From positions 49,117 through 113,116 of the forward strand of contig CAIRYW010000004.1 in assembly GCA_903882905.1 (NCBI GenBank): 64,000 nucleotides of DNA, read 5' to 3'. This DNA comes from an uncultured bacterium (lineage in GTDB: Bacteria > Patescibacteriota > Minisyncoccia > Phycocordibacterales > CAIRYW01). This document shows, one piece after another, positions 3,341-42,617 of the stretch; positions within the stretch are counted from its first letter, which is position 1; every line of letters begins with the position of its first letter. The notes under the pieces are model-generated. The model was not told the origin of the DNA. It saw nothing but the letters and a program-made list of their open reading frames with translations, and ran no database searches. Both the position numbers and the translations under genes were made by a program.

Positions 3341-3341
<1 letters not shown>

Positions 3342-4507: not shown

Positions 4508-4517
4508 TTTTTTACTC

Positions 4518-25129: not shown

Positions 25130-25473
25130 AGTTCAGTATATTTTGTGTGTTTTCCCTTTGACTTTTTCACTGGGTATTTTTGCTCATTCCTTTTAATCTT
25201 TTTCTCTAACGCCTCGACTATATCAATATTCAAATCTTTACTCATTAACAAAACCCAATATAAGACATCAGCAAGTTCTTCGCCAATATCAGTCTTGTTA
25301 GTTTTAATATATTTCTCAATTTCTTTTGTATTTTTCCACTGAAAGTGCTCTAAAACTTCACTTGCTTCTAGAACAAGTGATAACGCAACGTCTTTAGGAT
25401 TATGGAATTGTTTCCAATCTCGAGCATCACGGAAAGCTAGTATTTTATCCGTAAGTTTTTTAATGTCTGACAT
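25126..25473 (-). CDS. MazG-like nucleoside triphosphate pyrophosphohydrolase
   Basis: Probable start is the MSDIKK internal Met at 25473 (ORF-track start 25578). ILAFRDARDWKQFHNPKDVALSLVLEASEVLEHFQW...EELADVLYWVLLM is the MazG/NTP-PPase EExxE/EELxDxLxY signature. Stop overlaps the start of the DUF2075-S24 gene, so the two are co-operonic. Confidence 0.7.
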   Translation of the reverse strand: MSDIKKLTDKILAFRDARDWKQFHNPKDVALSLVLEASEVLEHFQWKNTKEIEKYIKTNKTDIGEELADVLYWVLLMSKDLNIDIVEALEKKIKRNEQKYPVKKSKGKHTKYTEL

Positions 25474-25575
25474 AAGTAATATAATAAACCTAATCGAACA
25501 AAAACCAAGCGGACGTTCGAAACTTACAGTTTCAGTACACCTTTTAAAAAATATTTTGAGATAAAAAAATACCTT

Positions 25576-25612
25576 CATGAGAAAGACCCAAAGGTCGGTC
25601 TCATGAAGGTCG
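25576..25612 (-). terminator. hairpin terminator downstream of the 92-aa GC-rich ORF
   Basis: cttcatgagaAAGacc-caaa-ggtCGGtctcatgaag: imperfect 16-bp inverted repeat, followed on the minus strand by a T-run. Confidence 0.5.
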
Positions 25613-26147: not shown

Positions 26148-26220
26148 GGGCCCATAGCTCATCTGGTAGAGCGCCTCATTTGCACTGAGGAGGTGAGCGG
26201 TTCGAGTCCGCTTGGGTCCA
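26148..26220 (+). tRNA. tRNA-Ala (anticodon UGC)
   Basis: GGGCCCAtaGCTCAtcTGGtaGAGCgCCTCAtTTGCAcTGAGGaggtgaGCGGTTCGAgTCCGCtTGGGTCCa. 7-bp acceptor stem with the G3:U70 Ala identity pair. D- and T-arms present. Anticodon loop tTTGCAc. No encoded CCA. Confidence 0.9.
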
Positions 26221-27912: not shown

Positions 27913-29031
27913 TCATTTTCCCTTCATTTTTTGAAGGAGATTAGACAACTCTTTTTCACTAAATTGGTAGACAATTTCTCTACTTTTTCCTTCAAAATCT
28001 ATGTTTCTTATGATTTCAATTTGCCTTTCCTCCTCAATATGTCCATAGCCGTAAGAGCCAAAGGTTGTTCCAACATCTTCGTGACCTAAATTTTGGCTGA
28101 TAGCCTTTTTCTGTTCTTCCGTTAGGGGTAGTTTTGATATTGCTTTAATGAGTAAGTGCCTAAAAGTGTGTGGATGATAATATTTAACTCCAGCCTGTAC
28201 AAATCTTTTTTCAAATATTTTTCTAACTGAAGTTGGACTTTTCCAAAAAGTTGGTTCAACTTCCTGTGTGTTGTAGTAACCTAAATTTTCCTTACCACAC
28301 TCAACTTTGGTTTTAGGAAAAATAGGGTCATTCGGACCGAATTTCTTCTGTTCTAATAAATAATCAAACCACTTAATAAAATAGTCTAGCGGTTCTTTGT
28401 ATGAAAAAGGTATTAGAGTGGAGATTATTCTCTTTGAGAATTTCGTTTTTACACCTAATTTTGGGTCTTGGTCTACAGTTAGCTTTTCTCTATCAAAGCA
28501 TTTCATTGGAAGAGATGTGATTGCAGAAATTCTAGCTCCAGTTAAAAAGGTTAGAGAAATTAAAGCTTTATCCCTCATTTCAATTTCAGTATTACCACCG
28601 ATATTTTCAATTACTAGCCTTATTTCATCTAAGGTTGGCGATAATTTGCTTTTTGGTTGAGTTGCAATCTTAATTTCTTGCCTTGATAGATTTAAATAAT
28701 CAATATCTGTTTGATTGATTTTTGACTTGTATCCAGATTGTCTAGATAACCACTCAAAGAAAGTCTTTAAATGTCTTATAATGTCGTAACAATAGGATAT
28801 GCTGATATTTCCTTCAGTGTGAACTTTTTTCTTGCACTTAAGCCAATTTTTGAAATTCTCAGCTTTTATTTTAGTAAAACCCGCTAAGTCACCTTTATTA
28901 GTAAAATCCTCCCAAAGATATACTGCGTCTTCAAAGCATTCAATTGTTGTTTTAGAGAATCCTTTGGAGTTGGCTAAGTAGTCATAGAATTTTCTTTTTA
29001 CCACTTCATTTTTCTGGGTTATTGATGACAT
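27913..29031 (-). CDS. tyrosine-type site-specific recombinase/integrase
   Basis: 372 aa. N-terminal SAM-like domain. C-terminal catalytic HPHTFRHLLI ... LGHEDVGTTFGSYGY (R-H-R-Y constellation with terminal Tyr). Confidence 0.85.
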   Translation of the reverse strand: MSSITQKNEVVKRKFYDYLANSKGFSKTTIECFEDAVYLWEDFTNKGDLAGFTKIKAENFKNWLKCKKKVHTEGNISISYCYDIIRHLKTFFEWLSRQSGYKSKINQTDIDYLNLSRQEIKIATQPKSKLSPTLDEIRLVIENIGGNTEIEMRDKALISLTFLTGARISAITSLPMKCFDREKLTVDQDPKLGVKTKFSKRIISTLIPFSYKEPLDYFIKWFDYLLEQKKFGPNDPIFPKTKVECGKENLGYYNTQEVEPTFWKSPTSVRKIFEKRFVQAGVKYYHPHTFRHLLIKAISKLPLTEEQKKAISQNLGHEDVGTTFGSYGYGHIEEERQIEIIRNIDFEGKSREIVYQFSEKELSNLLQKMKGK

Positions 29032-29093
29032 ATTTTTTTAGTATTTATTATTGGTTTCTAATGGGACATTTAAGAGGTGTATCAAGTAATCAT

Positions 29094-29498
29094 TTAATCC
29101 TTTTGGCATATCTTTAAAAATCTGTTTATTTTTGTTCCACATTGCTCGCATAATCCTATTTTCTTTTGTTGCTCTATTTTATTTTTCCCTATCCTTTTTC
29201 CAGTTTTGACGATATTTTCACTACCGTTCAAGGCCTCAACAACCTTCTTGCATTTGAAGCAGTAAAATTGATTTTTAGCCAAAGGCTTTTTTTTAGCTGA
29301 CCGTTTTTGGTTGATAAATATTTTTAAATCTTCGCCCATAATCAATAGTGGACTGGAATCCTCATCAACTACTTTTAGGTTCTCCTTTTTAATCCATCTG
29401 GAACAAGTTTTTCTGTCAACGTTCAAAAGTGTTGCTATATCCTTGATTGAATAGCTACTCCTAGATTTAATTAAGTGGATGTTGTATTTATTGGCCAT
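29094..29498 (-). CDS. HTH (excisionase/MerR-like) DNA-binding protein with C-terminal CxxC...CxxC zinc ribbon
   Basis: 134 aa. YSIKDIATLLNVDRKTCSRWIKK helix-turn-helix. CFKCKK...CEQCG zinc-ribbon. Confidence 0.5.
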   Translation of the reverse strand: MANKYNIHLIKSRSSYSIKDIATLLNVDRKTCSRWIKKENLKVVDEDSSPLLIMGEDLKIFINQKRSAKKKPLAKNQFYCFKCKKVVEALNGSENIVKTGKRIGKNKIEQQKKIGLCEQCGTKINRFLKICQKD

Positions 29499-29666
29499 TA
29501 AGAAGCCTACTATTTACTTGGCAGGCTCTTGAACGCCGATATGGCACCAGCCAAGTAAGCAATAGGTTTACTCTTTGGCGTTCAAGATTTTGCCAAACAA
29601 AAAAAGGCCTACTATCAGCCTACGCTTTTATAAAAATTCAAATACCTACATTAAAAAAATAGGTAT

Positions 29667-30746
29667 TTAAATGTCCCTAATATCTTTTGGTTTATTTTTT
29701 ACACTTATTGATTTAGCAAAGCGTGTCACGGATTTCTTTATAGCGTCAGCTGTCATTTCTATTCCGTAATCTTTTTTTAAAATTTTGGAAATTATTGTCT
29801 CTTTGTATATTCCCGCTAAAGAAAGATTTTCTTCTCCTTTGTACTGTTTTAATAAATCCTTTTTCGATAGTTTACTTAATTCATAAATCATCTGGTTTTT
29901 CTCTGTATCGCTTTCCTTAATTCTATTTGGATGAACATCAAATTGCTTATAAAAAGTATTCTTCATTGTAATGTGCTCTTTAAGGTCATCCCAGTTGTCT
30001 TCAATGTATTGGATGGTTTCTTCCTTCGTTGCGTAAGGTTTGATTATTAAAAAAACGCTGTCAAAGTGCAAAGAAAGACGGCGTACGAACTCTTTATTGA
30101 AAATATAATTTTCACCTCCCATTCCTTCGTCCTGACCTTCCATATCGTGTCTATCGGGAGAGAAGTGGTCAACGCCAATATACCTGCAATGGTGGCAAGT
30201 CACTTTGCTTTTAATATATTTATTGATACCGTACTCACCTAGAAATAAATATTTTTCCACAAAATGACCGATGATTTGTCCATCCAATAAATCAAGTCCC
30301 CAAAATTTTCTGATTAGTCTAATAGTTTCTGGAAATAGTTTCTTTGTGTATTTATTTTTGGGAAGCATTATATTTTTAGACAACATATGATTATGGTCTA
30401 AAAGTTGTTGTCCTAGCCAAAATACCATCTTTAAATCTTTCTCTTTTTTACCTTCCTTTTCGTAAGCTTGCATTACTTTTTCTCTACTCTCATCAGTAAT
30501 CGGAATGTTATTATTTATGTGATAGTTATCAGCAAACGCAAAAAAAATGAGAAGATATTTTTCTTTTTTACTCATCTTACTAACAAAGAAAAGTGCTAAA
30601 TCGGTTTCATTGTTAAAGCCAACTTCAGGCATACCAAGCGTTTTTCTGGTTTCTTTTACAGTATCAAGAAAACCCTCTTTAAAAAGTAATTTTTTATAAA
30701 GAGTTCTAAATTTTTTCTCAAAATCATCTGCAGAATATTTCTTCAT
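29667..30746 (-). CDS. hypothetical protein, recombinase-associated family (paralog of 37727..38464)
   Basis: 359 aa. Shares an N-terminal region with the 37727..38464 product (RKTLGMPEVGFNNETD vs RKTFSIPEDGFENEID; RKFWGLDLL vs RSRNWGFDIS). Confidence 0.5.
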   Translation of the reverse strand: MKKYSADDFEKKFRTLYKKLLFKEGFLDTVKETRKTLGMPEVGFNNETDLALFFVSKMSKKEKYLLIFFAFADNYHINNNIPITDESREKVMQAYEKEGKKEKDLKMVFWLGQQLLDHNHMLSKNIMLPKNKYTKKLFPETIRLIRKFWGLDLLDGQIIGHFVEKYLFLGEYGINKYIKSKVTCHHCRYIGVDHFSPDRHDMEGQDEGMGGENYIFNKEFVRRLSLHFDSVFLIIKPYATKEETIQYIEDNWDDLKEHITMKNTFYKQFDVHPNRIKESDTEKNQMIYELSKLSKKDLLKQYKGEENLSLAGIYKETIISKILKKDYGIEMTADAIKKSVTRFAKSISVKNKPKDIRDI

Positions 30747-30752
30747 ATCTTG

Positions 30753-31676
30753 TTACTTAGATATTCTCGCCTGTAGAAGAGCAATCAACTGCGCCATTAA
30801 AGAAGCTAGCTGTGCTCTTAGTGAAGTAATCAGAGCCTGTTTTTGAGCGTCAGTAATAGTTGTAGAGTTGTTTGACTGCGAATAAATAGAATTAATTTTG
30901 TTTATTGTTTGAGTATCAAGATTTCCAAGATTAGCAGTCAACCCTTGAGCTTTCTGAAACTTAATCAAAGCATTTTTTGTTTTTGTTCCAAAATAATTAC
31001 TTTCGTTACCAGAAGAACCAGAACCAGATGTTGAGACAGTATATCCTTGTGAATTTAAAAATCTTTGAAGGACAATTATCTCTGAATCTGTTACACCAAA
31101 AGCTAATGGGGTAATCAAAAGTGGAGTTGATGAACTTGTAAAAATAGAAGACGTAACTGGTCCTGAAGTAGCAGTCAAGATAGGAGTAACAATTGGGACT
31201 ATGCTACCTCCACCTCCGCCACCAGATGAAGACCCTCCACCAGAAGAACCGCCGCCCCCACCTCCTCCTGTACTTGGAGGAACAGCTACAGCTACAGGAA
31301 TACTGTAAGTAAAATTTAAATTATTTAATTGAGAAACCCCCTCCTGAAATCCAGCAACTGATATAGTCGTACTACCTAAACTTTCTTGTCCAGATAATAT
31401 TGATGGTGATTGGAAAGTAAATGTAATAGGTCCAACACCTTCACCAATATGAAGTTTTTGTGCAGTTGAAGAAGCATAACCATAATTACCAGAACTATCA
31501 GTAACAGACTGTCCTGCTAAAGTAGTTCCGTAATATGCACGAATTATAGTGCCTGTAGGAGCAGTATTACCATTTATGGTTGCAACACCGTAGAAAGCCA
31601 TTGGAAAACTTGGAATAGATTGAGCAAAAGAAAATAATGGTAAAACAAATAAAGCTGTTAGTAGTATCTTTTTCAT
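30753..31676 (-). CDS. secreted protein with Gly-rich linker and C-terminal putative peptidoglycan-binding (PG_binding_1-like) domain
   Basis: 307 aa. Signal peptide MKKILLTALFVLPLFSFA. (G)n/(S)n linker. C-terminal LQRFLNSQGY...YFGTKTKNALIKFQKAQGLTANLGNLDTQT. Confidence 0.55.
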   Translation of the reverse strand: MKKILLTALFVLPLFSFAQSIPSFPMAFYGVATINGNTAPTGTIIRAYYGTTLAGQSVTDSSGNYGYASSTAQKLHIGEGVGPITFTFQSPSILSGQESLGSTTISVAGFQEGVSQLNNLNFTYSIPVAVAVPPSTGGGGGGGSSGGGSSSGGGGGGSIVPIVTPILTATSGPVTSSIFTSSSTPLLITPLAFGVTDSEIIVLQRFLNSQGYTVSTSGSGSSGNESNYFGTKTKNALIKFQKAQGLTANLGNLDTQTINKINSIYSQSNNSTTITDAQKQALITSLRAQLASLMAQLIALLQARISK

Positions 31677-31681
31677 AAGTT

Positions 31682-33316
31682 TTATTGAACGTTAGTTCTC
31701 CAGGATGAAAGGTCCTGCATAAAATTAATTAGCTGATTACCTTGAGAAGTATTTACACTTATTCCTTCAAACTGGACAGCGTATGTGTTTACTCCTGGGT
31801 TCAATACAGCAAATGTGTAAGTAACTGGGATTGTAACATTGTTGTTTCTGCCTAGAGTGAAGCTCTTACTGTCACCAGACAAGGTTGTACCTGTTGATTG
31901 ACTGTAGTTTACAGTTAACAAGTAGTTTGTTGATGTATCTTTAGCACCGTTTGCGTAAACAGTTACAAATGATGTACTTGTTGCAAATGAAGGTGTTGAA
32001 GATGAAAGTAGACCAAATGTTGCATCTGTTCCTACTGCTGATAGATTCAAATTGAATGTACCTGAGTAAGTTGTAGTTGCATTACCTGATGTATCTGAAG
32101 GACCAACTGTCTTAACCAAGTTTGCTGAATTTAGAGCAACTTGTAGACCTAATCCAACAACTTTCTGAGTATTTCCAACAGCTAAACCATTGATTGTAGT
32201 TACTGTTTTATCAGACGAATCATAAAAAACGAAATCTGAAGTTGAAGCGATTACAGTTAGATTTCCTGTAAGAACACCTGTTACATCAACCTTAACTGTG
32301 TAAGGTAGAGTTGAGTTTACAGCAACCAATGCTCCCTGAGTTCCATCTGTGATGTTACTAAATGTAGCAACACCTCCTGAAACTGCAGCTGAAGCAACCT
32401 GTGTTGAACCTTGGTACAAATAAGCAGCAGTAACTGTTCCTTGTGTTCCTGAAGTTGCAACGTTGATTGCTAGGTTATGAAGGTGAACAGCATCGTTTTG
32501 AGCGTTAACATCAAAAATCAATACTGGAAGCTTCAAATACTGACCGTTTGTTGTGTCAGTAACTGCAACTTGACTTTGTTGAGGTGAAGATGAGTCAAGT
32601 GAAATATTAACGTATGCGGTTGTTGATGATGAAGTAGTAGTTGCTGGAATATCATTATTTTGAGTACCAATATATGAGGCTCCAGGTTGAGTAATATATA
32701 TTGCATATCCTTTAGTTTCTCTAAAATCATTCAAACTATTTACATCACTAGGAATAGCTGTTTGCCATTTGTCAGAAACAGAAACACTATTTATATTTGA
32801 ACTACTAGCTGTTAAATCAACAACTGAATCATAGTCACCAGAAAGTGAATTTAAGATACTACTTGGGTTATTTGTATTAGTAGATGCGTCTGTGACTGGG
32901 TCGGCATATGTTGGGTTAGCAATACCTATTGAATACCATCCAGCTGAGGAAAAAGTTCTTGAAAAAAATCTTTGGTTTGGAGTAGTGCTTGCTCCGTAAT
33001 TAAAAATTAATGTTTGTGTAGTTGTGCTTTTGTTATTTATAAAATATCCATAAAGAGGAGTAAATTCTGTTTGCTCAAGGTCAGCCATAGTTGACCAACC
33101 ATCAGTACTTGAAGCATTGAGAACATAAATATCAAAATTGTTTGAAGTTTCAGGAAGAGAAAAGGTATGTGAATCTAATATTCTTGGAGTAGAAATTATA
33201 TTCCATCCTGGAGTGAGTGAGACAGATTGATTATACGATACCGAAGCATTTGCGAAACTAACAATAGAAACAAAAGCTAAAAACACCACCGAGAGTAAAT
33301 ATTTTTTCATATTCAT
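31682..33316 (-). CDS. large secreted Ser/Thr-rich protein, hypothetical
   Basis: 544 aa. Signal peptide. Beta-rich, low-complexity S/T/N composition. No catalytic motif. Confidence 0.5.
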   Translation of the reverse strand: MNMKKYLLSVVFLAFVSIVSFANASVSYNQSVSLTPGWNIISTPRILDSHTFSLPETSNNFDIYVLNASSTDGWSTMADLEQTEFTPLYGYFINNKSTTTQTLIFNYGASTTPNQRFFSRTFSSAGWYSIGIANPTYADPVTDASTNTNNPSSILNSLSGDYDSVVDLTASSSNINSVSVSDKWQTAIPSDVNSLNDFRETKGYAIYITQPGASYIGTQNNDIPATTTSSSTTAYVNISLDSSSPQQSQVAVTDTTNGQYLKLPVLIFDVNAQNDAVHLHNLAINVATSGTQGTVTAAYLYQGSTQVASAAVSGGVATFSNITDGTQGALVAVNSTLPYTVKVDVTGVLTGNLTVIASTSDFVFYDSSDKTVTTINGLAVGNTQKVVGLGLQVALNSANLVKTVGPSDTSGNATTTYSGTFNLNLSAVGTDATFGLLSSSTPSFATSTSFVTVYANGAKDTSTNYLLTVNYSQSTGTTLSGDSKSFTLGRNNNVTIPVTYTFAVLNPGVNTYAVQFEGISVNTSQGNQLINFMQDLSSWRTNVQ

Positions 33317-33456
33317 TTTAATTATTTTTAAGCTAAAACTTACAATAAATAATACAGTACAATTAACATTTTGTCAAAGATAATAAGTGGAAAACATACA
33401 TTTAAGTATTTATAAACTAAGTAGTATTATTACTTAGTAATTTCTCTCACCAGTTA

Positions 33457-33560
33457 TTAATTAAATAAATATTTATGTTTAACTTTTTTCACAATCTAAG
33501 TGTCGGAATAATTCCAGTCTTTATTGCTTTTACTGGTATTTTTCATTCAAATAATAACAA
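33457..33560 (+). repeat. conserved 5' module (upstream box plus leader-peptide coding region), copy 1 of 3
   Basis: agttattaattaaataaat upstream box, then atgtttaacttttttcacaatctaagtgtcggaat...gcttttactgg...tttcattc. About 85% nucleotide identity to the copy at 38678..38780. The same upstream box precedes the copy at 34275. Confidence 0.6.
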
Positions 33561-34269
33561 TTTAGCGATTACCGCTACAACCACAACAAGTGGTGCTACT
33601 TCTACAATAAACATAGAATCAACGACAACTATTCCTGTGGTTCAAACTATCAAAACTTCATCACAAACAAATACTCAAAAACAAATTGAAAATACTCCAG
33701 TTGCACACACAACAACTCAATCACCAACTATGCAGGAACAGGTTCCACAACAAGTTCAACCTACAGGTGAACTTTGTAACGGTACCTATTGGAGTAAGTG
33801 TCAATCGGGACAAAATTTTATTTGTCCACAAAGTGGTAATGCATATTGTCAAAGCTCTCAAGTACCTGTTCAACCACAGCAAACCACAAGTCAGACCCCT
33901 CAAAATCAACAAAATTCTGCTTCAATCACTGATGAACCTCCTGTAATAAATGGTATAACTCTACCCGCAAGAAATTACGCTGGAAGTGCAACTAATTTTT
34001 ATTTGACAGTATCTAACCCACAAGAAAATCCAATGAACTGTTTTGTTGACTGGGGTGATGAAAATGCACTAACTCCTATGTCAACCTCAAAGAGTACAGA
34101 CTTACGTATAGCACAAAATAATGTCCCACAAGAATTTTCACATTCCTACTCCAGTGCGGGCACTTATACAATATCTCTTATTATCACCGAACAAATATTT
34201 AATTCTTCCTCAGGTACTTATTTTGATGGTTTAAAAACACAAACAACTAAAACAATCGTTGTGCAATAA
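33475..34269 (+). CDS. secreted protein with conserved FFHNL-type N-terminal leader, Cys-rich region and C-terminal PKD-like domain
   Basis: 264 aa. Leader MFNFFHNLSVGIIPVFIAFTGIFHS. Cys-rich CNGTYWSKCQSGQNFICPQSGNAYCQ. VDWGDENALT...SHSYSSAGTYTISLIITE resembles the PKD WDFGDG...H.Y...G.Y.V motif. Confidence 0.55.
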   Translation: MFNFFHNLSVGIIPVFIAFTGIFHSNNNNLAITATTTTSGATSTINIESTTTIPVVQTIKTSSQTNTQKQIENTPVAHTTTQSPTMQEQVPQQVQPTGELCNGTYWSKCQSGQNFICPQSGNAYCQSSQVPVQPQQTTSQTPQNQQNSASITDEPPVINGITLPARNYAGSATNFYLTVSNPQENPMNCFVDWGDENALTPMSTSKSTDLRIAQNNVPQEFSHSYSSAGTYTISLIITEQIFNSSSGTYFDGLKTQTTKTIVVQ

Positions 34270-34274
34270 AAGTA

Positions 34275-34380
34275 TTAGTTATTAATTAAATAAATCATAT
34301 GTTCAGTTTTTTTCACAATTTAGGAATAGCATTTGTGTCGGCTTTCGTTGCTTTTACAGGGGCTTTGCATTCCCAACCTT
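34275..34380 (+). repeat. conserved 5' module, copy 2 of 3
   Basis: agttattaattaaataaat box immediately upstream of atgttcagtttttttcacaattta...gcttttacagggg...ttgcattc. Confidence 0.55.
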
Positions 34381-35339
34381 TAGTTCAGACATCTGTAAAT
34401 CAAATTACTGCGACAACTACAGTACAAGCTACAAGTTCTGGGGATATAAAATCAAAGAGTAATTCTGTTCAAAATTCAAAAACAGAAACACAAAATACTG
34501 CGGATAGTGTTCCTCAACCAACAGTTCAAAATATAAATATCCCTACATCAATTACTCCACCTGTTACTACAACTGGTTATGCTTCATACTCAATCCTACC
34601 GTCAAACTTTTCAAATAATCCTCCGTATTATGTTGGAACCAAAATAAAAATCAGTGGAAATATTAAAGATTTTCTAGCTAATGGTGATAGAGCAGTAACT
34701 TCAAATTATATTGAGATAAAACCAGCCAATTCTCAGAACGGCGAACTTCCTTATATGATGCTCCAAATCAACTCTAGTACTAACTACCAACAAGCTGTAT
34801 CAACTTTGACTAAGGGAGATTCTATAACTGCGTACGGAACAATAACAGCAAGTCAAAATTTTACTGACCCTTTAGGAATCGTCAGCATAATTCCAGTTCT
34901 TAATATAGTTAGAATAGATAAGTGCAATACATCGTTATCCTGTAGTGTAAATGTTGGACTACAAACTGTTTTTCCTTATACACCAAGTCAAAGTATTAGT
35001 AACAATGCTAATAATAATTTCGTTTCGATTAGTGCTATACAACAAAATCCTAATTTATATTTAAATCACGTAATATCCACAACTGGTAAAATATATGAAA
35101 TCCTTGACGCTAAAGATGGGGGGAGTTCTTTACTAATGACGCAAGACCCAAAGAGTAGTAGCGACCTAGTTTCAATTGCAGTAGATTCAGTTTTTTTCTC
35201 AAAAAATAATATACAAGTTGGAGATATTATTCAGATGACAGGTACGTTAACATCTAATTCAAACTCTTATCAAAGTGAATATGGTATTGCTGTTCCTTCC
35301 TATTTCATCGAGAGCGGAACCATCACATTAAGTAATTAA
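34299..35339 (+). CDS. secreted protein with conserved FFHNL-type N-terminal leader, hypothetical
   Basis: 346 aa. Leader MFSFFHNLGIAFVSAFVAFTGALHSQPLVQTSVNQITATTT shared with the 38693 product over about 45 aa. Divergent C-terminal region. Confidence 0.5.
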   Translation: MFSFFHNLGIAFVSAFVAFTGALHSQPLVQTSVNQITATTTVQATSSGDIKSKSNSVQNSKTETQNTADSVPQPTVQNINIPTSITPPVTTTGYASYSILPSNFSNNPPYYVGTKIKISGNIKDFLANGDRAVTSNYIEIKPANSQNGELPYMMLQINSSTNYQQAVSTLTKGDSITAYGTITASQNFTDPLGIVSIIPVLNIVRIDKCNTSLSCSVNVGLQTVFPYTPSQSISNNANNNFVSISAIQQNPNLYLNHVISTTGKIYEILDAKDGGSSLLMTQDPKSSSDLVSIAVDSVFFSKNNIQVGDIIQMTGTLTSNSNSYQSEYGIAVPSYFIESGTITLSN

Positions 35340-35514
35340 TAAAATATTTAAAATAAAAAACCCACTAGAAATCGGAAGCTAGTGGGTTTTTATATTGTAT
35401 TATGAAAATTTCAATTTGTTTACCAAGTATTAACAACACTGAATTTATTGATGGAATTAGATATAAGCAACGTTCTAACTTCGTCTAGTACTCCCAGCAG
35501 TAGGCCAAATACAC

Positions 35515-37266
35515 CTAGTTAATTTGTTTATCAGCCTCATATTCCCTCAAAATAAAGGTTAAATACTCACATTCTCTAGCAAATTTGTTCCAAAAATCAA
35601 ACCCCAAGTCCACAAATCGAGATTTATTGGTGTCGAATTCGTTAGATAGCTTGTAGGGTAAGGATAATTTTGGTGTTCCATTAACTATTTCTTCATAAGT
35701 AGGTAGTTTGTCGAATACCAACCCATAAAGGGACCTCAATTTAGTAAAATCCTTTTGTTTTATAAGGTATTCTTCTGGGTGTTCCATTATTTTTTTTACG
35801 TAGCCTACAAAAGCGTGAATATCGTTCTCCTTAATTTCTAATTTATTTCTTTCACCTTCAGTACTCAATATCTGCTTTTGTATTTCCTCAATCTTTTCTT
35901 CAAGGTCTTCTCGGATGATTGTATTAGTAGTCCCTGTAAAGGCATCAATCAATCTTTTCTTTTCTGTTTTAAGTTCAATAACAGTAGTTCCTGTTTGACT
36001 AGCAAATTCTCCAAGCTCTTTTTCTTTTTCCCTATATTTGTTTTTAATAGTTGCCTCGAGGCTTCTAAAGTAATTTTCGTCACTATAAGTTATCTTTTTT
36101 ACAAACTCACTTAAATTCTTTTCGAAAGTATCTTTACTTACCCCGTAATATTTGTGATTTCTACAGCAATGGTAAGTTGGATATTTTTTTATCTTACCTT
36201 TAGGGCTACTGCCCAAAAATGGCTTATCGCAATGAGGACACAAAATTACATCTTTAAAATGAAAAAGTGGGTTATTTCTTGTTCGCTTTAATTGGAGAGG
36301 ATTGAAATCCTTTAAAATTTTAATCGAGCCATTTTTTTGTTCATCGATATAAATCTGACCCCTATTGGCATCATTAAACTTTTTAATGCTTACTAAGCCT
36401 TTATATTGAGTTCTGGTGGGCTCAAGAACCCACTTCTCTATGTTTATTCCACAGTAGATAGGTCTTTTTATGATGCTCTGTAATTTTTTAACAGTAAGCT
36501 TTAATCTACCCCTTGAGCCAATTACTTTACTTTTATCTTTTGACCAGTGTTTTCTATCTCTTGAGCGGTAGCCCATTGCATTGAGTTTTCCGACAATTTG
36601 AATATCAGAAAAAGCACCAGAAGCCCTAAGTTCAAACATTTTTGCAAAGTAATGTGCTCTTTCTGGGTCTGGAACCTGAATAACTCTTTTTTTATTTTCT
36701 ACAAATACTTTTTGATTAATATATCCATCATCAGCTTGTCTAACTTTATAACCTTCTCTTACCAAGTTTATTTCAGAACCAATCATTCTAGTTAGAATCA
36801 CATTCACTTCATTTTTCCCTTGCTGAGCCATAACGAGCTCTGATATTTCGCTTGGATAGATTCTGCTCCAATCATATTCCATACCTAAATGTTCGAGGGT
36901 ATTTTTAGAAGGTTGTATTACTCCATTCGCATCAATTAACTCAACTCCATATTTTGCAAGCAACTGTTTTAACGTTTCGTATCCAAGAGTTCCATTTCTT
37001 GTAAAACGGTCAATGGCACGAAAAATCAAGTAATCAATTTTTTTATTTGATTTTTTTATAAATGTGATGATGTCTTCAATTACTGGTCTTTCATTTTTTC
37101 TACCTGAATATTGTTCCTTGAACACATTAAGCACTTTTAAATTTTTTCTCTCGGCAACGCCTAAACAAATTTTTGCTTGGTCTTCAATGCTTTCGCCTTG
37201 CTGAGCCTGTTTTGTTGTACTTACTCGACAGTATACTAGGCAGTTTTTATGAGGTAAGTTTTCCAT
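35515..37266 (-). CDS. large serine recombinase
   Basis: ORF-track start 37320 is a TTG. The ATG at 37266 (MENLPHKNCLVYCRVSTTKQ) is the likely start. Resolvase catalytic domain (YCRVST...DRFTRN), recombinase domain, zinc ribbon (CPHCDKPF...YHCCRNH), C-terminal coiled coil. Confidence 0.85.
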   Translation of the reverse strand: MENLPHKNCLVYCRVSTTKQAQQGESIEDQAKICLGVAERKNLKVLNVFKEQYSGRKNERPVIEDIITFIKKSNKKIDYLIFRAIDRFTRNGTLGYETLKQLLAKYGVELIDANGVIQPSKNTLEHLGMEYDWSRIYPSEISELVMAQQGKNEVNVILTRMIGSEINLVREGYKVRQADDGYINQKVFVENKKRVIQVPDPERAHYFAKMFELRASGAFSDIQIVGKLNAMGYRSRDRKHWSKDKSKVIGSRGRLKLTVKKLQSIIKRPIYCGINIEKWVLEPTRTQYKGLVSIKKFNDANRGQIYIDEQKNGSIKILKDFNPLQLKRTRNNPLFHFKDVILCPHCDKPFLGSSPKGKIKKYPTYHCCRNHKYYGVSKDTFEKNLSEFVKKITYSDENYFRSLEATIKNKYREKEKELGEFASQTGTTVIELKTEKKRLIDAFTGTTNTIIREDLEEKIEEIQKQILSTEGERNKLEIKENDIHAFVGYVKKIMEHPEEYLIKQKDFTKLRSLYGLVFDKLPTYEEIVNGTPKLSLPYKLSNEFDTNKSRFVDLGFDFWNKFARECEYLTFILREYEADKQIN

Positions 37267-37428
37267 ACGTATATTATATCTCGTTTTTGCTTGTACTGAT
37301 TTCTTCTTTCCACATAGCAAAAAATATCTCAGCTAATTGGTCTTGCTTCTCTCTGAGTTCAAGAATTTGTTCTTCGCTTAATCGTTCAGCCGATGAACCG
37401 AGAGCCGTCTTGTAGTCTTCAAGGCTCA

Positions 37429-37677
37429 TCATAGGCTATTTTGGCTCTGTTTTCGGTTGTCCTCAGAGCAGGAAAGAGCAACAAGGTGTTTGAGAATTAC
37501 TCGTTTATCCTGAGGTCTATAATCAGACTTCTCAACCAACTTATTAAACCAGCGGTTTACTGCATCCTTACTAAAATTTTGTCCCTTTATTGCACGGGAA
37601 AAGTTTATGAAGCTACTTATATTGTTATTTTTTTGTTCTAAGCTGTTGAATCTTCGTTGGATACTTCTCATACCCAA
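37429..37677 (-). CDS. questionable small ORF
   Basis: 82 aa with no motif. Sits between the serine recombinase and the paralogous hypothetical gene. Confidence 0.25.
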   Translation of the reverse strand: MGMRSIQRRFNSLEQKNNNISSFINFSRAIKGQNFSKDAVNRWFNKLVEKSDYRPQDKRVILKHLVALSCSEDNRKQSQNSL

Positions 37678-37726
37678 AAGTCTATTACGTGAGGACTTGC
37701 AAGTAGACTACATTTAAAAAGAACTT

Positions 37727-38464
37727 TTATTTGTCACGGATAGATTTATTTTGCCTATGTATTATTTGTCTAACATTTTCTGGCTCAATATTAAAACCAC
37801 GTTTTCTCATTATTGTTGAAATATTTAAGTCTTTGTATGTTGAAGTTGAGCCACTAATCTTGTTGAGTTCTTTGATTTTCATTTGACCGTAGAGGTATAC
37901 AAGACTGTCTCTTTCTATGTTCGTTGATTGCTTATATTTTGTCTTTACAACTTTATTCTTATGCATCTCTGTAAAAACTTTTTGAAATGATTCGATTAAT
38001 CCTTTTTCTTGCTTTAGGAATAAATTAATATCTGTGGGTCTTGAACTTTCTCCGATTTTTAAATAAATACCATCTTTTAACTCATTTTTAATCCACGCTC
38101 TGTTACGGGGTGTAATTAAATACATATCACATCCAGTAGTACTTGCAGAATCCAACCTAAAATTTTTAACTTTTCCATAATGTATAAAATCATAAATAAC
38201 ATAATCTAGGCTTGATATATCAAAGCCCCAATTACGACTTCTAATTTTTGCCATTAATTCTAAAGATTTAAGGTTGAGTTTTTTATTTTTTATCAGGTCT
38301 GCAAGCCACTTTTTATAATCAATTTCATTTTCAAATCCATCTTCAGGAATAGAAAAAGTTTTTCTATAGTCGTTAACCATAGTGTTAAAGGATTTCTTCG
38401 CAGAAAGTTTTTGCCAAATAGACCTAGCTTTATTATTTTTTAGCATAATACACATAGTATACAA
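37727..38464 (-). CDS. hypothetical protein, recombinase-associated family (paralog of 29667..30746)
   Basis: 245 aa. See the paralog evidence above. Located immediately downstream of a recombinase, as is its paralog. Confidence 0.5.
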   Translation of the reverse strand: MYTMCIMLKNNKARSIWQKLSAKKSFNTMVNDYRKTFSIPEDGFENEIDYKKWLADLIKNKKLNLKSLELMAKIRSRNWGFDISSLDYVIYDFIHYGKVKNFRLDSASTTGCDMYLITPRNRAWIKNELKDGIYLKIGESSRPTDINLFLKQEKGLIESFQKVFTEMHKNKVVKTKYKQSTNIERDSLVYLYGQMKIKELNKISGSTSTYKDLNISTIMRKRGFNIEPENVRQIIHRQNKSIRDK

Positions 38465-38677
38465 CGCATATTCTAGGTGTTATAGTTTAAGTACAACTGA
38501 ATAAAGAAAGTAGCCTAAACTTTGAGATTTTTGTTTCAAGGCACGGTGAAAAGAATCCTGACACGGATAAAAAACCCATCATATGGGGTTACCGTGTCAG
38601 GTCACACTGGGAAACTGGTGTGGATAGCGAAAGCTGTCACCTATGTGGTGGGCTTTTTGCTATTCAATTATTAGGTA

Positions 38678-38780
38678 GCTAATAATAAAAATATGTTCAA
38701 TTTTTTTCACAATCTAAGTATCGGAATTTTCTCTGCGTTTCTAGCTTTTACTGGGGCTTTTCATTCTCAAACACAACCAG
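38678..38780 (+). repeat. conserved 5' module, copy 3 of 3
   Basis: atgttcaatttttttcacaatctaagtatcggaat...agcttttactggggcttttcattc. 32/35 identity with copy 1 across the first 35 coding nucleotides. Confidence 0.6.
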
Positions 38781-39520
38781 TAGTCCAAACGCCCGTAACT
38801 CAAATAGTAGCAACAACTACGGAGCAAACTTCAGTATCTGCTCCAGTACTTAAAACTCCCCAAACTCAAAATTCCACAAAAGAGACACCGACAACTGCCC
38901 CAGCTTCCACTTCAGTACCACCAACAGTGATTTCCAAAAATATCTCAATAAATTATTTGCCTGCTTATCTAGCTTTTCTAAATTCACAAAAAGATTTTTT
39001 TATCAAACAAAGAAGTATCTTAGACCCCCTAATTGCTGATGCACAAAGCAAATCAGATTCATATGATGAGCAGGCAAGCTATTTTAGTGGACTCATAGGT
39101 CAAGGACTTGCTGGACAGATATATCAAGGCGTCGCCAATCAAAGTAAAAGTGCATCTCAAGTATATGTTGCCTTAATTTCATCATTAAAAACGGTTCAGT
39201 CTTTTGATGATGATGCGATAAATATCATCAATGCAGAAGAGAACAAAGACGTTGGATTATTCTTATCATCTGATGAATACACAGCCAAATATAATTCAAT
39301 GGAAACATCTCTCAGTTATCGGTATAACCTAATTGTGAGTGATATAAGTAAGGAGGGAAATGCATATTTTGCTCAAGACAAAAAAATGAGAGATGACGAG
39401 GCACAGTTACTTGGTCAATTACAATCTCTAGCCACAGCTCCTAATCCAGTTAATTTACAACCGCCAACTCCACGAATAACCATTTGTAATTTTTCAGGAA
39501 GTACTATTATCTGTAATTAA
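38693..39520 (+). CDS. secreted protein with conserved FFHNL-type N-terminal leader, hypothetical
   Basis: 275 aa. Leader MFNFFHNLSIGIFSAFLAFTGAFHSQTQPVVQTPVTQIVATTT. C-terminal Cys pair (ICNFSGSTIICN). Confidence 0.5.
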   Translation: MFNFFHNLSIGIFSAFLAFTGAFHSQTQPVVQTPVTQIVATTTEQTSVSAPVLKTPQTQNSTKETPTTAPASTSVPPTVISKNISINYLPAYLAFLNSQKDFFIKQRSILDPLIADAQSKSDSYDEQASYFSGLIGQGLAGQIYQGVANQSKSASQVYVALISSLKTVQSFDDDAINIINAEENKDVGLFLSSDEYTAKYNSMETSLSYRYNLIVSDISKEGNAYFAQDKKMRDDEAQLLGQLQSLATAPNPVNLQPPTPRITICNFSGSTIICN

Positions 39521-39591
39521 ATTCTATGGGACAAGAAACGCTTTTAGCTAATTAGGGATGCTTTATTGCAACCAGTAAGATAGAAAGAAAT

Positions 39592-39921
39592 CTATTTTTT
39601 TATAGTTGTTCCATTGTTTTGTAATTGTTGCGAAAGATTGTCAATTTTAGTATTTATAGATTCGTAAGAAGATGTTTTGGTATTGTTTGATTCTACAACA
39701 AGTGCTTGCATTGCAGTTAATGTAGACACAAATCCTAAAAATAAAACAATAATTACTCCAATTACTATACTCCACATTAAAGTATTAAAAGATTTTATTG
39801 TAGATTTTAAGTCCGAAATTCTTGTATCAAGAGCACTTTCTGTGAGCGGATTAGATACATCAATTTTAGCTTTGCCTGTAGATGTATTATCAGTAATTTT
39901 TTGTTCTATTTCGTTTTTCAT
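39592..39921 (-). CDS. small single-TM membrane protein, hypothetical
   Basis: 109 aa. Central TM WSIVIGVIIVLFLGFVSTLTAM flanked by polar Ser/Thr/Asn-rich regions. Confidence 0.4.
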   Translation of the reverse strand: MKNEIEQKITDNTSTGKAKIDVSNPLTESALDTRISDLKSTIKSFNTLMWSIVIGVIIVLFLGFVSTLTAMQALVVESNNTKTSSYESINTKIDNLSQQLQNNGTTIKK

Positions 39922-40206
39922 TTATAGATTATTTCTCTCTGGAACATCAGTGGCTTTTGCTAAAAATAACCTAATTTCTCCCGTATCAGCATTTAAAAAT
40001 GCTTTTATTACAAGCCCAGACGTCTGAGAAGCTGAAATCATTTGAGCACCAGCTATAGTGACAACAGGGAGCATATTTAGGTGTTGTATTTCAGTCCAAG
40101 TACCTCCTGAAGCATTTAATATTCCTCGTATTTCTTCTAATGAAATTATTCGTGGGGGCATAAATTTATTGTGAAAGTAATTATATATCTTTTTTATCAT
40201 TTTCAA
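39922..40206 (-). CDS. hypothetical protein
   Basis: 94 aa. Start/stop abut the neighbouring genes, giving a three-gene minus-strand operon 40543..39592. Confidence 0.35.
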   Translation of the reverse strand: MKMIKKIYNYFHNKFMPPRIISLEEIRGILNASGGTWTEIQHLNMLPVVTIAGAQMISASQTSGLVIKAFLNADTGEIRLFLAKATDVPERNNL

Positions 40207-40216
40207 AGTACTTATT

Positions 40217-40543
40217 TTATGAAATTATTTCTGATAAAGAAGATGTGTTAGTAGAATCTGGGTCTTTATACTGGGTCAAAATAACTTGAAAAGGCTCAAA
40301 ATCTGTTTCTACATCCATACTTTGTGAGAGTTTTCCGTACGCTCGGTCGGCAAGCCATTCACGAGCTCTCTGGTTGCCTGAGGTAGCTTGCTCTATTGCC
40401 TTATCAACAATTGGCTCGAAAGAAATAATAAGTTTCCGTACAATAAGTTCTCTAGCTTTTTCAGCCTCAATACCAGCAAATCCTTTTTTTCTTCCTGCAT
40501 TTTGTCTGTAACCGCCTCTCATAATTTGATAAGAATCAAACAA
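40217..40543 (-). CDS. hypothetical protein with basic N-terminal HTH-like segment (phage/mobile-element-like)
   Basis: 108 aa. GGYRQNAGRKKGFAGIEAEKARELI resembles the GRPxxG DNA-binding N-termini of terminase-small-subunit/transposase HTH proteins. Weak. Confidence 0.35.
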   Translation of the reverse strand: MFDSYQIMRGGYRQNAGRKKGFAGIEAEKARELIVRKLIISFEPIVDKAIEQATSGNQRAREWLADRAYGKLSQSMDVETDFEPFQVILTQYKDPDSTNTSSLSEIIS

Positions 40544-40796
40544 TCATACATAACTGTTATCTAACTGATGAGCAGTATACTTTCTCCCTGTTCTTTGCCT
40601 GTTTATCAAGGGAATAAGTTGTAGTTCTATAATGTAATGGGTAAGTTGAAACATAACAAAAGATAAACATTTCGTTGCTAAATATATGTGCTTTTTCATA
40701 CTATTACTACCGATTCAAAGCCGTTAAAAACGGCATTCCATTTAATAACCATATTTTCTATAGTGTTCCATTCCAGACCCTCTGAGCCCACAAATA

Positions 40797-40825
40797 CTAA
40801 AAAACACCACATTTGTGGTGTTTTT
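40797..40825. terminator. perfect hairpin with flanking A- and T-runs
   Basis: aaaaaACACCACAttTGTGGTGTttttt. The NYN ORF-track start codon (atgtggtgt) lies inside this hairpin. Confidence 0.6.
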
Positions 40826-41526
40826 TAGTATTTGTGGACGACACAGGTTTTGAAATTAGTATTTGTATTGATACAATTAACGTAAATATATTAGAAGCTA
40901 AGATCGGAAATTTAGTGAACAAGAGTGAGATTAAAGAATTTATCGACTCCTTTGTTGGAGCTCAATCAAGAACAATTATTATTGTTGATTTTGGTAATGT
41001 TGATAAATGGAAAGAAAGTTTAGGATGGAAAATAGGTATTCAGGAACTGGCAAGATTAATTAAAAATTTTTCTATAGGTAATCGAGAACTAAGAAGATTT
41101 TATTACGGTGTAGATTATGGTCCATATGAAAAAAATAAAACTCCAACTATTTGGTCTGCACAAATGATTCATCGTGCAGAAGAAAATGGATTAAAATCAG
41201 TCACTAAAAGAGTTAAATATATTCATAATTCAAACAATTCAATGGGCTATGATAAAAAATGTGATCTTGATGTTGATATGGCTATTGACTTGGTAAAAAT
41301 GAAGGACAGTTATGATAATGTGATTTTATTTTCTGGTGATGGTGATCTTATCTGCGCAACAAATTATCTTAAACAAGAATTCAGTAAAAAGATTTACGTA
41401 TTTAGTGCAAGAGGTCATATTGGGCGTGAAGTAATAGATGCTTCAAAAGAAAAACTTGTGGACTTGATTTTGTACATTGAGGATTTTGAGTACAGGCTCA
41501 ATATGGACAGATTTAGATATAAATAA
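40813..41526 (+). CDS. NYN-domain (LabA/PIN-like) putative ribonuclease
   Basis: RTIIIVDFGNV ... CDLDVDMAIDLVKM ... DNVILFSGDGDLICATNYLKQE are NYN/LabA-like signatures. The 5' end is uncertain because the listed ATG lies within a terminator hairpin. A downstream GTG/TTG start shortly before RTIIIVDFGNV is plausible. Confidence 0.65.
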   Translation: MWCFLVFVDDTGFEISICIDTINVNILEAKIGNLVNKSEIKEFIDSFVGAQSRTIIIVDFGNVDKWKESLGWKIGIQELARLIKNFSIGNRELRRFYYGVDYGPYEKNKTPTIWSAQMIHRAEENGLKSVTKRVKYIHNSNNSMGYDKKCDLDVDMAIDLVKMKDSYDNVILFSGDGDLICATNYLKQEFSKKIYVFSARGHIGREVIDASKEKLVDLILYIEDFEYRLNMDRFRYK

Positions 41527-41533
41527 TTCAAAA

Positions 41534-41556
41534 GCCCCGCTTTTGGCGGGGCTTTG
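41534..41556. terminator. Rho-independent terminator between convergent NYN and ddl genes
   Basis: aaaaGCCCCGCttttgGCGGGGCttt. Confidence 0.7.
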
Positions 41557-41645
41557 ATTAAAATCCGGTGCAAGTTTTACCTTACATAAATACATTACAC
41601 CACATTATGATGTAAGTCAAAAGACTTGTGTGGATAAATTTAATG

Positions 41646-42617
41646 CTATTTTCCAGACAAAGCCAATTCAATAAGGTGTTCTAGAAGTTCAGCATATGAT
41701 GATCCAACTGCCTTAATTTCCTTCGGTAAAAGTGAAGCCTCTGTTAGTCCTGGCAATGTATTTATTTCAAGGATAAAAATTCCTCTTCGTGGAGTGACAA
41801 TAAAATCAGACCTTGAATAATGTCTTGCGCCAACGGCTTGATGTGCAATTGCAGCCATTTTTTGGATTTGTTCACTTTCTTCTCTAGAAAAATTTCCAGG
41901 GCAAATTTCATCAGCTCCTTCGTCACTGCTATATTTTGATTCATAGTCAAAAAAAGCTTGGTGTTTTTTTGGAACTATTTCTACTGGCAAAAGTGAATAA
42001 ATATCTTTACCGCGAAAACTATCCAAAACACCGCAAGTTCCCTCTTTACCTTTTATGAATTCCTCGATAATAACTTCGTCATCACTTTCAAAACCTTTTT
42101 TTAATCCAGCGTCAATTTCTGCAATTGAATAAACTTTTGAAGTTCCAACAGATGAACCACCTTTAACTGGTTTTATAACTGACGGCTGAGGAAATGTTCT
42201 AAAAATTTCTCCGGCCAGTCCTGGGTGGTAATCACTTTTTTTGTAAATTTTGTGGTGAGCAATTTTTAATCCATTTTGCTTGAAAAAATCTTTTGAGAGG
42301 GCCTTGTTCATTCCAATAGCTGACGCTAAAGATTTTGAACCAGTAAACGGAATTCCAATTTGCTCCAAAAGTTTTTGAACTGTTCCATCCTCGCCGTATT
42401 GTCCGTGCATTGCATTAAAAACAACATCAGCGATTTTGTGTATGTCTTGTGGCTTAATTGGCGCACCTTTAATATGCCAAACACCATCATGATCAATGTA
42501 AACATCAATCACTTCATATTTTGATGGTAAATTTTTTATGACACTAGCACCAGTTTTTAAAGAAACTTCGTGCTCAGTGGAGGGACCTCCTCTTAGAACT
42601 GCAACTCTTTTTTTCAT
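41646..42617 (-). CDS. ddl: D-alanine--D-alanine ligase
   Basis: 323 aa. ATP-grasp. N-terminal VAVLRGGPSTEHEVSLKTG. C-terminal EINTLPGLTEASLLPK. Confidence 0.9.
   Translation of the reverse strand: MKKRVAVLRGGPSTEHEVSLKTGASVIKNLPSKYEVIDVYIDHDGVWHIKGAPIKPQDIHKIADVVFNAMHGQYGEDGTVQKLLEQIGIPFTGSKSLASAIGMNKALSKDFFKQNGLKIAHHKIYKKSDYHPGLAGEIFRTFPQPSVIKPVKGGSSVGTSKVYSIAEIDAGLKKGFESDDEVIIEEFIKGKEGTCGVLDSFRGKDIYSLLPVEIVPKKHQAFFDYESKYSSDEGADEICPGNFSREESEQIQKMAAIAHQAVGARHYSRSDFIVTPRRGIFILEINTLPGLTEASLLPKEIKAVGSSYAELLEHLIELALSGK

Follow-up and report, generated by a model that had tools for sequence, protein, structure and literature searches.

A conserved N-terminal leader shared by otherwise unrelated proteins of a Patescibacteriota contig, and its probable carriage on serine-integrase elements

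Three genes with a common N-terminal leader

A 64,000-nucleotide (nt) stretch of DNA from an uncultured member of the Patescibacteriota (contig CAIRYW010000004.1, positions 49,117 to 113,116), here termed the window and numbered from its first letter, has three genes whose products begin with the same kind of N-terminal leader and continue into unrelated proteins. The genes are termed copies 1–3, the leader is termed the FFH leader, and the part of each protein that follows is termed the body. An original prediction, made from the sequence, described a common leader with divergent bodies, and this description is confirmed. Each protein begins with MF[N/S]FFHNL-x9-AFTGxxHS followed by a T/S/Q/P-rich stretch, after which the sequences are unrelated. 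Pairwise BLASTP similarity between the copies is confined to the first 25–100 residues (E values of 1e-10 to 2e-17). The open reading frames (ORFs), with lengths in amino acids (aa), and the repeats that precede two of them are as follows.

33475–34269, + strand: copy 1, 264 aa; leader at residues 1–25 (33475–33549), then a T-rich linker
34299–35339, + strand: copy 2, 346 aa; leader at residues 1–25, then a linker and two OB-like beta-barrels
38693–39520, + strand: copy 3, 275 aa; leader at residues 1–25, then a linker, a region of three long helices, and a two-Cys hairpin at the C-terminus
33452–33470, + strand: 19-nt box AGTTATTAATTAAATAAAT before copy 1, exact repeat, ending 4 nt before the ATG
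34277–34295, + strand: 19-nt box AGTTATTAATTAAATAAAT before copy 2, exact repeat, ending 3 nt before the ATG

The leader module has the form M-F-N-F-F-[H/K], a 16-residue hydrophobic stretch rich in small residues, and A-F-T-G-x-F-H, followed by a T/S/Q/P-rich stalk. A degenerate DNA pattern for FFHN[LF]-x9-AFTG has exactly three matches in the 64 kb, which are copies 1–3, and none in 100 shuffles. A six-frame regular-expression search of the 64 kb reveals no further leader copy.

At the nucleotide level, the 19-nt box reported before two of the copies is present as described, with two exact copies only in the window; with three mismatches allowed there are four matches in 64 kb versus 0.3 expected. 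The first 35 coding bases of copies 1 and 3 are identical at 32 of 35 positions, as had also been noted. The proposal of a conserved 5′ nucleotide module thus holds for the box, which is identical, but not for the coding part, where protein conservation and codon bias are the only basis of the similarity. At leader sites with the same amino acid, identical codons number 7, 13 and 10 in the three window pairs, versus 7.1, 9.6 and 8.6 expected from the codon usage of the window, in which TTT makes up 85% of Phe codons. Leader pairs from different genomes behave in the same way. The 32/35 identity of copies 1 and 3 is therefore a product of protein conservation and codon bias. Leader synonymous sites are randomised to saturation, and the constraint is on the protein and not on the DNA. 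By the codon-identity test, neither a recent gene conversion nor a DNA crossover site is apparent within the coding part of the leader. A run of seven T residues at codons 3–5 was considered as a slippage tract and dropped, given the dominance of TTT among Phe codons.

The sequences directly 5′ of all three ATG codons (33452–33470, 34277–34295 and 38667–38686) are AT-rich and nearly palindromic, and that of copy 3 forms an 8-bp hairpin that ends 6 nt before the ATG. Perhaps these stretches could serve as operators or as translational control elements.

The leader family, its bodies and export

When a 32-position leader profile was run with HMMER exhaustively against 1.84 billion representative proteins, 19 clusters matched at E ≤ 1e-3. 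The original prediction had proposed a search for the leader in other genomes; the leader proves to be rare and not widespread. It is found at residue 1 in 17 of the 19 clusters. In one of the other two, the match is at residues 56–81 of a called ORF that reads through an upstream LOOT RNA (see below), and in the other it is internal to a protein of 1801 aa. The copy 1 protein is identical to representative P0007. A word-indexed protein search with the leader alignment alone is insensitive and missed even copy 3, which is present in that collection. A strict leader DNA pattern, validated on the window, yields chance matches only in the metagenome_contigs collection and none in viral_contigs, and the strict motif is rare or absent in both. 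No Pfam or NCBIfam model matches the leader, and no published description of it was found in literature searches. The leader is the N-terminal module of a rare, lineage-restricted family.

Leader sequences are strongly conserved across the 19 clusters. M1, F4, A18 and T20 are found in all 19, and F5, G21 and F23 in 18. Position 6 is H or K in every cluster, H in 16 and K in three, and there are no insertions or deletions. The core, residues 8–23, is moderately hydrophobic and has small residues at G11, S14/A15, A18 and G21/A22; it ends with the invariant T, the near-invariant G and F-H. The protein opens directly with the hydrophobic segment, and H/K6 is the only basic or polar residue at the presumptive inside end. 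The window leaders have no K or R. The absence of a basic n-region, pointed out in the original prediction, therefore holds for this genome but not family-wide, since three clusters have Lys at position 6.

The bodies behind the leader fall into at least nine unrelated classes, with certain sub-modules common between classes. These include copy-3-like helical proteins, copy-2-like proteins, proteins with a Cys-rich module, either alone or combined with a PKD-like domain or a coiled coil, A/Q/K-rich coiled coils, helical proteins with Cys repeats, proteins with a GNWYYPNAF motif and an Ig-like domain, and several singletons. Copy 1 has a Cys-rich module (CNGTYWSKC..GQNFICP..GNAYCQ), also found in P0016 and P0024, and a PKD-like domain. 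The latter assignment, made earlier by eye, is borderline in the Pfam scan (PKD_4, 25.6 bits, just under the cut-off of 27). Copy 2 has body homologues in P0006, P0015 and P0018. Its AlphaFold2 (AF2) model shows two OB-like barrels at low confidence, and Foldseek returns generic tandem-OB matches only. Copy 3 has body homologues in P0002, P0003 and P0004. The AF2 model has three helices of 44–55 residues each (residues 89–247) and the C-terminal Cys hairpin; the predicted local distance difference test (pLDDT) values of the helices are 71–92 per 10-residue block, mostly 83–92. Foldseek matches of copy 3 are generic BAR-like bundles only, with E above 0.03. The N-termini of copies 2 and 3 have no confident AF2 model.

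Relatives of the same bodies reveal a second type of leader. The closest relative of copy 3, P0002, is encoded on a 1-kb Logan contig from another sample and is 74% identical (82% over the aligned body). It has an ordinary Sec leader, MKKYLLSLLLIVFIIPSIAFA followed by SWWNPF, and similarity to copy 3 begins in the linker at about residue 40. P0006 (L052, 32–1129), which is 44% identical to copy 2, also has an ordinary Sec leader, ...ALFAAFA followed by VWWNPF. P0003 and P0004 display a diverged version of the window leader, MFNFFHSVLSAVGMFIISVGLFFTGSSG. The second leader type, common to P0002 and P0006, is a Sec signal that ends in AFA and is directly followed by WWNPF. The finding of the same bodies behind two leader types, and of one leader before many bodies, indicates on sequence comparison that leaders and bodies have been exchanged over evolutionary time. 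The joining of conserved 5′ ends to variable 3′ ends, emphasised in the original prediction, is thus real, but it pertains to evolutionary time and not to a switch.

This interchange with ordinary Sec leaders also provides the best available basis for predicting that the FFH leader is an export signal. Ordinary secreted proteins of the window have normal K-rich leaders, and the FFH leader is therefore a distinct class in this genome. Sec/YidC-type insertion, with the body outside, is favoured because of the PKD-like and Cys-rich domains, the long Thr/Pro/Gln stalks and the even Cys counts (of the 19 listed proteins, copy 1 alone, with 5 Cys, has an odd number). The proteins are probably displayed at the cell surface, with a leader that might be retained as an N-in/C-out signal anchor or might be cleaved. 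No lipobox is apparent, as none of the 19 leaders has a Cys within the first 28 residues. The pilin/class III motif, G(-1), F/M(+1), E(+5), is also absent from the leader sequences, and NCBIfam signal-type or pilin models, including YSIRK, KxYKxGKxW and Tat, do not match copies 1–3 or P0003 at E ≤ 1.

Might this be an ordinary cleaved Sec signal with no special role, conserved because fairly recent paralogues kept their 5′ ends? Residues 8–23 have the length of the h-region of a type I Sec signal (10–16 residues) and its moderate hydrophobicity, T-G-[A/S] is usable as positions -3 to -1 in 14 of 19 clusters, and relatives with the same body do carry an ordinary Sec leader. In addition, the family comprises 19 clusters only and may be young or narrow. 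However, within one body class, leader identity is 59–85% versus 39–47% for the body, and the saturation of synonymous sites implies that selection, and not recency, maintains leader identity. Indels are absent, and eight invariant or near-invariant positions include polar and small residues (N3, H/K6, G11, S14, T20, G21 and H24). Moreover, the closest leader by sequence is often on a different body class. On balance, the ordinary-signal explanation is unlikely.

As a rule, signal peptides diverge more quickly than the mature proteins behind them. Here it is the body that varies more, and hence sequence-specific selection on the leader is indicated. The strength of the conservation suggests that the leader is specifically recognised, by a partner or by itself, beyond mere hydrophobicity. 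The original prediction had offered a lineage-specific sorting or anchoring signal as its alternative, and it is this alternative that the data favour, with at least nine body classes in 19 clusters and a leader that outconserves them.

A stronger form of this idea is that the leader is a dedicated sorting or assembly signal, a conserved helix that is read by a lineage-specific machine or packs against itself in the manner of type IV pilins; elements that carry it could then display or assemble interchangeable ectodomains. The hydrophobic start of the protein, the single conserved polar/basic residue near the N-terminus (H/K6), the recurring small residues of the core, the variable C-terminal domains and the greater conservation of the leader are all consistent with such a role. 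Yet the prepilin motif (G, then F-x-x-x-E) is missing, as are matches to signal or pilin models. Pfam and PHROG scans find no pilus or secretion genes in the elements described below, no conserved partner was found in them, and AF2 gives no confident N-terminus. This stronger form is therefore decidedly improbable.

Integrative elements and the LOOT RNA

The features that surround the three genes are given below.

26148–26221, + strand: tRNA-Ala, overlapped antisense by the 3′ end of recombinase no. 1
26159–27709, - strand: large serine recombinase no. 1, 516 aa; 3′ end overlaps tRNA-Ala
27913–29031, - strand: tyrosine recombinase, within the probable first element
27913–33316, - strand: rest of the probable first element, with the tyrosine recombinase, a helix-turn-helix protein, a 359-aa ORF and two Sec-leader proteins, divergent from copies 1 and 2
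Within 27913–33316, - strand: the two ordinary-Sec-leader proteins, a 307-aa PG_binding_1 protein and a 544-aa protein
35360–35391, + strand: hairpin and T-run (acccactag...ctagtgggttttt), 3′ of copy 2
35515–37320, - strand: large serine recombinase no. 2, of 583 or 601 aa, counted from the ATG at 37266 or the TTG at 37320, respectively
37274–38464, - strand: three ORFs upstream of recombinase no. 2, of 52, 82 and 245 aa
38512–38638, + strand: LOOT RNA (Rfam RF03000, classed as small RNA), 55 nt upstream of copy 3
38645–38659, + strand: 3′ tail GTGGTGGGCTTTTTG, just past the Rfam model
39592–40699, - strand: four small ORFs downstream of copy 3, of 109, 94, 108 and 51 aa

The serine recombinase that the original prediction placed between copies 2 and 3 is indeed encoded there (recombinase no. 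2; Pfam Resolvase 64.5 bits, Recombinase 23.1 bits). Both window recombinases have PF00239 and PF07508 above cut-offs and are longer than 450 aa. The best PHROG match of recombinase no. 2 is PHROG 95, 'integrase' (E 1.7e-36); a 'DNA invertase' match (E 1.6e-12) covers the catalytic domain only. The exact 583-aa protein is found on contigs from four samples.

A large serine recombinase is present at every leader locus with enough flanking DNA, at 1.6–3.7 kb from the leader gene where coordinates exist (the window, L051, L054, L057 and the P0014 locus). L051 and L054 are syntenic (IF3-L35-L20 ... tmRNA-SmpB-FtsH), and at both the recombinase gene runs at its 3′ end into the tmRNA gene; the two recombinases are 67% identical and the bodies of the leader genes are unrelated. 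At L057 the recombinase overlaps a tRNA gene and is followed by genes for an AAA_25 protein and a DUF5659 protein, all divergent from the leader gene. A comparable arrangement, adjacent to Ddl, is seen at the P0014 locus. The P0017 locus (L060) has no recombinase within its 5.7-kb contig. In this region (3015–5439), P0017 lies directly downstream of a SMODS/AGS_C (CBASS-type) cyclase, near a ParB-methyltransferase gene. The antisense overlaps are as follows (RNA gene, then recombinase).

Window: 26148–26221 and 26159–27709, tRNA-Ala
L057: 910–981 and 921–2642, tRNA
L051: 13975–14390 and 12477–14051, tmRNA
L054: 13451–13835 and 11953–13521, tmRNA

The overlap is ∼60–77 nt in these four elements, and the same stretch of element DNA seems to encode both a portion of the RNA gene and the end of the element's integrase. 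The association with recombinases drawn in the original prediction is thus real, but its meaning differs, as the genes ride on integrative elements.

Two tandem elements are probably present in the window, at ∼26.1–35.4 kb (with copies 1 and 2) and at ∼35.4–40.8 kb (with LOOT and copy 3). The overlap of tRNA-Ala and recombinase no. 1 is the probable left end of the first. The hairpin at 35360–35391, read directly from the sequence and not in the hairpin scan output owing to a loop longer than 8 nt, is likely a terminator and the probable mark of the cargo end of the first element. In L052, the copy 2 homologue is adjoined by a homologue of the 544-aa Sec-leader protein of this element. In the second element, ORF 40217–40543 is homologous to two ORFs of L057 in the same position (E 7e-25 and 2e-14), and copy 3 is therefore internal to an element; the four small ORFs at 39592–40699 probably belong to the same element. 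A single hydrophobic stretch is seen in the 109-aa ORF, which also has a weak match to a 'holin' PHROG. A spanin/lysis-cassette reading of copy 3 and this weakly holin-like ORF was rejected, as the same leader heads PKD-like, OB-like and Ig-like proteins.

Few of the other element genes can be named. Elements are ∼4–10 kb in size, have no recognisable virion genes in Pfam and PHROG scans, and nearly all of their ORFs are without a family. These scans assign none to the ORFs of 52, 82 and 245 aa; weak similarity links the 82-aa ORF to one of 107 aa in L054. The 359-aa ORF (29667–30746) likewise has no family assignment. It has a 38-residue N-terminal stretch in common with the 245-aa ORF (37727–38464), at 45% identity and E 1e-5, and nothing else. 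An inovirus-like prophage was set aside, since the Pfam and PHROG scans show neither Zot/pI-type ATPase nor coat-like genes.

LOOT RNA is found upstream of five of the eight leader genes examined and is absent before copies 1 and 2 and P0017. Before copy 3 it scores 85.7 bits, against a gathering score of 46.4. At L051, L053, L054 and L057 it scores 77–84 bits, is on the same strand as the leader gene and precedes four different body classes. The distance from LOOT to the ATG is 42–65 nt across the five loci. With the tail included, the coordinates are as follows.

Window: 38512–38659
L051: 9819–9960
L053: 463–605
L054: 9838–9980
L057: 6129–6275

The tail GTGGTGGGCTTTTTG is identical at four of the five loci in alignments and is terminator-like in the hairpin scan. 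Its pairing with the loop CCCAUCAU is maintained in 40 of 40 alignment cells, with one A-U to G-C compensatory change at L057; with five sequences this is a hint only, as 84 of 500 shuffles do equally well. The tail–loop pairing (GUGGUGGG with CCCAUCAU) competes with the local stem of the model, and the minimum-free-energy fold favours another arrangement. A LOOT-tail DNA pattern has no match in viral_contigs, and literature searches found no published LOOT function.

This raises the question of whether LOOT, spacer and leader form a portable expression/display cassette. LOOT would be a cis-acting riboregulator or attenuator, in which the loop CCCAUCAU would pair with either the local stem or the 3′ tail GUGGUGGG and its U-run (38654–38658), each pairing excluding the other. 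The leader would be a dedicated sorting or assembly signal that brings interchangeable ectodomains onto the host surface, for example for host attachment or for exclusion of competing elements. Such a complete cassette is quite unlikely. Independently of this, an orphan RNA acquires a reproducible genetic context, upstream of leader genes and inside elements, which makes its function experimentally approachable.

Programmed rearrangement, the favoured reading and known systems

The original prediction read the locus as a shufflon-type or antigenic-variation system. Spelled out, one or more serine recombinases would swap or invert bodies at the conserved 5′ modules, as in the shufflon, Hin/Gin or mycoplasma vsp/vsa systems, and would generate antigenic or receptor-binding variation within a population. 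The layout invites this: conserved 5′ ends are joined to unrelated 3′ ends, a recombinase gene lies between copies 2 and 3, and the leader regions of these two copies form an 80-nt direct repeat of 79% identity that flanks it. Contigs of other assemblies also break repeatedly inside copy 2 and just before copy 3. The reading nonetheless fails on several counts. Each copy is complete and lies on the + strand, with an ATG of its own that closely follows an in-frame stop, and there are no start-less cassettes. A repeat search of 33000–42000 shows no inverted repeat linking the copies; the leaders are direct repeats, and their saturated synonymous sites leave no conserved DNA crossover site in the coding leader. 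The recombinases, at 516–601 aa, are of the integrase type and overlap tRNA/tmRNA genes; they resemble neither a ∼190-aa serine invertase nor Rci. At L051, L054 and L057 only one leader gene accompanies the recombinase, and there is no second cassette for an exchange. Finally, five contigs from two or three other samples are collinear with the window (99.8–100% identity) and show no alternative junction. Programmed variation is accordingly most improbable, and a shufflon or antigenic-variation label for this locus, tempting as it is, would be wrong.

The explanation that we favour, with a probability of about 0.65, is that of an exported surface-protein family with a conserved N-terminal module and interchangeable bodies, carried as cargo by serine-integrase elements and with no programmed switch. 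The leader would drive insertion, most likely Sec- or YidC-dependent, and would then stay as an N-in/C-out signal anchor or be removed. Extracytoplasmic bodies would be interchangeable among PKD-like domains, tandem OB-like barrels, helical bundles, coiled coils, Ig-like and Cys-rich domains. The leader genes would be cargo of small elements that use large serine recombinases as integrases. The first element would consist of tRNA-Ala and recombinase no. 1 with its - strand genes, divergent from copies 1 and 2, and the second of recombinase no. 2 with its - strand genes, divergent from LOOT and copy 3, followed by the small - strand ORFs. New leader–body pairs would arise by recombination or domain shuffling over evolutionary time.

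Several observations do not sit easily with this explanation. The mean Kyte-Doolittle hydropathy of the leader in a 19-residue window is 1.4–1.7, a value that fits a signal peptide better than a stable anchor. The signal peptidase I site is ambiguous by eye: cleavage after T20-G21-[A/S]22 and before F23 fits 14 of 19 clusters, the other five, copy 1 among them, have I or L at -1, and at the remaining candidate sites -3 is F or +1 is P. With respect to the elements, no att sites, tRNA-fragment repeat or composition break that would mark boundaries were found in the window, and no conserved partner gene was found in the elements. An empty site was not identified in relatives. Furthermore, contig ends recur at certain window positions in two or three other, independent assemblies of the same organism: 34865, 34872 and 34881 in copy 2, 37593 in the 82-aa ORF, 38565 in LOOT and 38662, 31 nt before copy 3. 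The break regions have no similarity or shared repeat among them that could be found, and the recurrent ends could reflect strain-level structural heterogeneity.

Known systems offer partial parallels. The YSIRK-G/S and KxYKxGKxW signal peptides have a motif in an export signal that is common to otherwise unrelated Gram-positive surface proteins and that carries more than the instruction for export. The FFH leader resembles them in being a lineage-specific motif in an N-terminal signal with unrelated proteins behind it. It differs in that the Gram-positive motifs are in a basic n-region that precedes a normal h-region, and their leader is cleaved, whereas the FFH motif begins at residue 1, has H/K6 as its only basic residue and has a conserved core.

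In type IV pilins, a hydrophobic N-terminal helix is strongly conserved and has a single conserved polar residue close to its start, and the globular C-terminal part is variable. The FFH proteins lack the basic prepeptide, the G(-1)/F(+1)/E(+5) residues and a model match, and they have a long low-complexity stalk between helix and globular domain. The mycoplasma vsp/vsa/vpma systems and the R64 shufflon depend on DNA-level sites that are often inverted, on silent or promoter-less cassettes, and on a tyrosine recombinase or a small serine invertase. They resemble the window in having a conserved 5′ leader on variable 3′ regions and a recombinase gene in the locus, but differ from it in its saturated leader synonymous sites, complete co-oriented genes and large serine integrases.

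Proteins of the 'moron' (lysogenic-conversion) type, from prophages and integrative elements, are similarly surface cargo at tRNA/tmRNA sites, in mosaic elements where related integrases accompany different cargo. The elements described here differ from the carriers of morons in their size (∼4–10 kb), in the lack of recognisable virion genes, and in having LOOT and the leader module in common. The ScARPs of Spiroplasma citri are a plasmid-borne surface protein family with a highly conserved signal peptide (PMC2386487). They are alike in being surface proteins encoded by mobile DNA with a conserved signal peptide. They are unlike in being homologous over their full length, with a cleaved leader and a C-terminal helix anchor. 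Here only the first 25–50 residues are shared, and copies 1–3 have no C-terminal hydrophobic stretch.

The closest functional parallels are the Gram-positive motif signal peptides, ScARP-type adhesins, and the surface cargo of prophages and elements. There appears to be no earlier description of the leader itself, of how strongly it is conserved, of its carriage by serine-integrase elements or of its pairing with LOOT. The leader is a newly defined and unannotated N-terminal module that is constrained more than the domains it carries, a pattern that suggests the signature of specific sorting, anchoring or assembly and not of generic export. In this poorly known lineage, such surface proteins would seem to travel on small serine-integrase elements at tRNA and tmRNA genes.

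Other features of the window lie outside or at the edge of the two elements. A perfect palindrome of 24+24 nt (CCACAAATACTAAAAAACACCACA / TGTGGTGTTTTTTAGTATTTGTGG), with 2 nt between the arms, is found at 40788–40837, between the divergent small-ORF block and a NYN-domain gene. Its role might be that of an operator or an origin, or it might mark the end of an element. To the left of tRNA-Ala is a defence-like cluster (21242–25578) with a Fic/DOC protein, a MazG-like protein and a 770-aa protein in which a Schlafen-group-3-like helicase is fused to an S24 peptidase. An adenosylcobalamin (AdoCbl) riboswitch is predicted at 8582–8712 on the - strand, with a score (51.7 bits) barely over the threshold of 50; of the genes downstream of it on this strand, at least the one for a 686-aa product encodes a Sec-type leader and a T/S-rich region.

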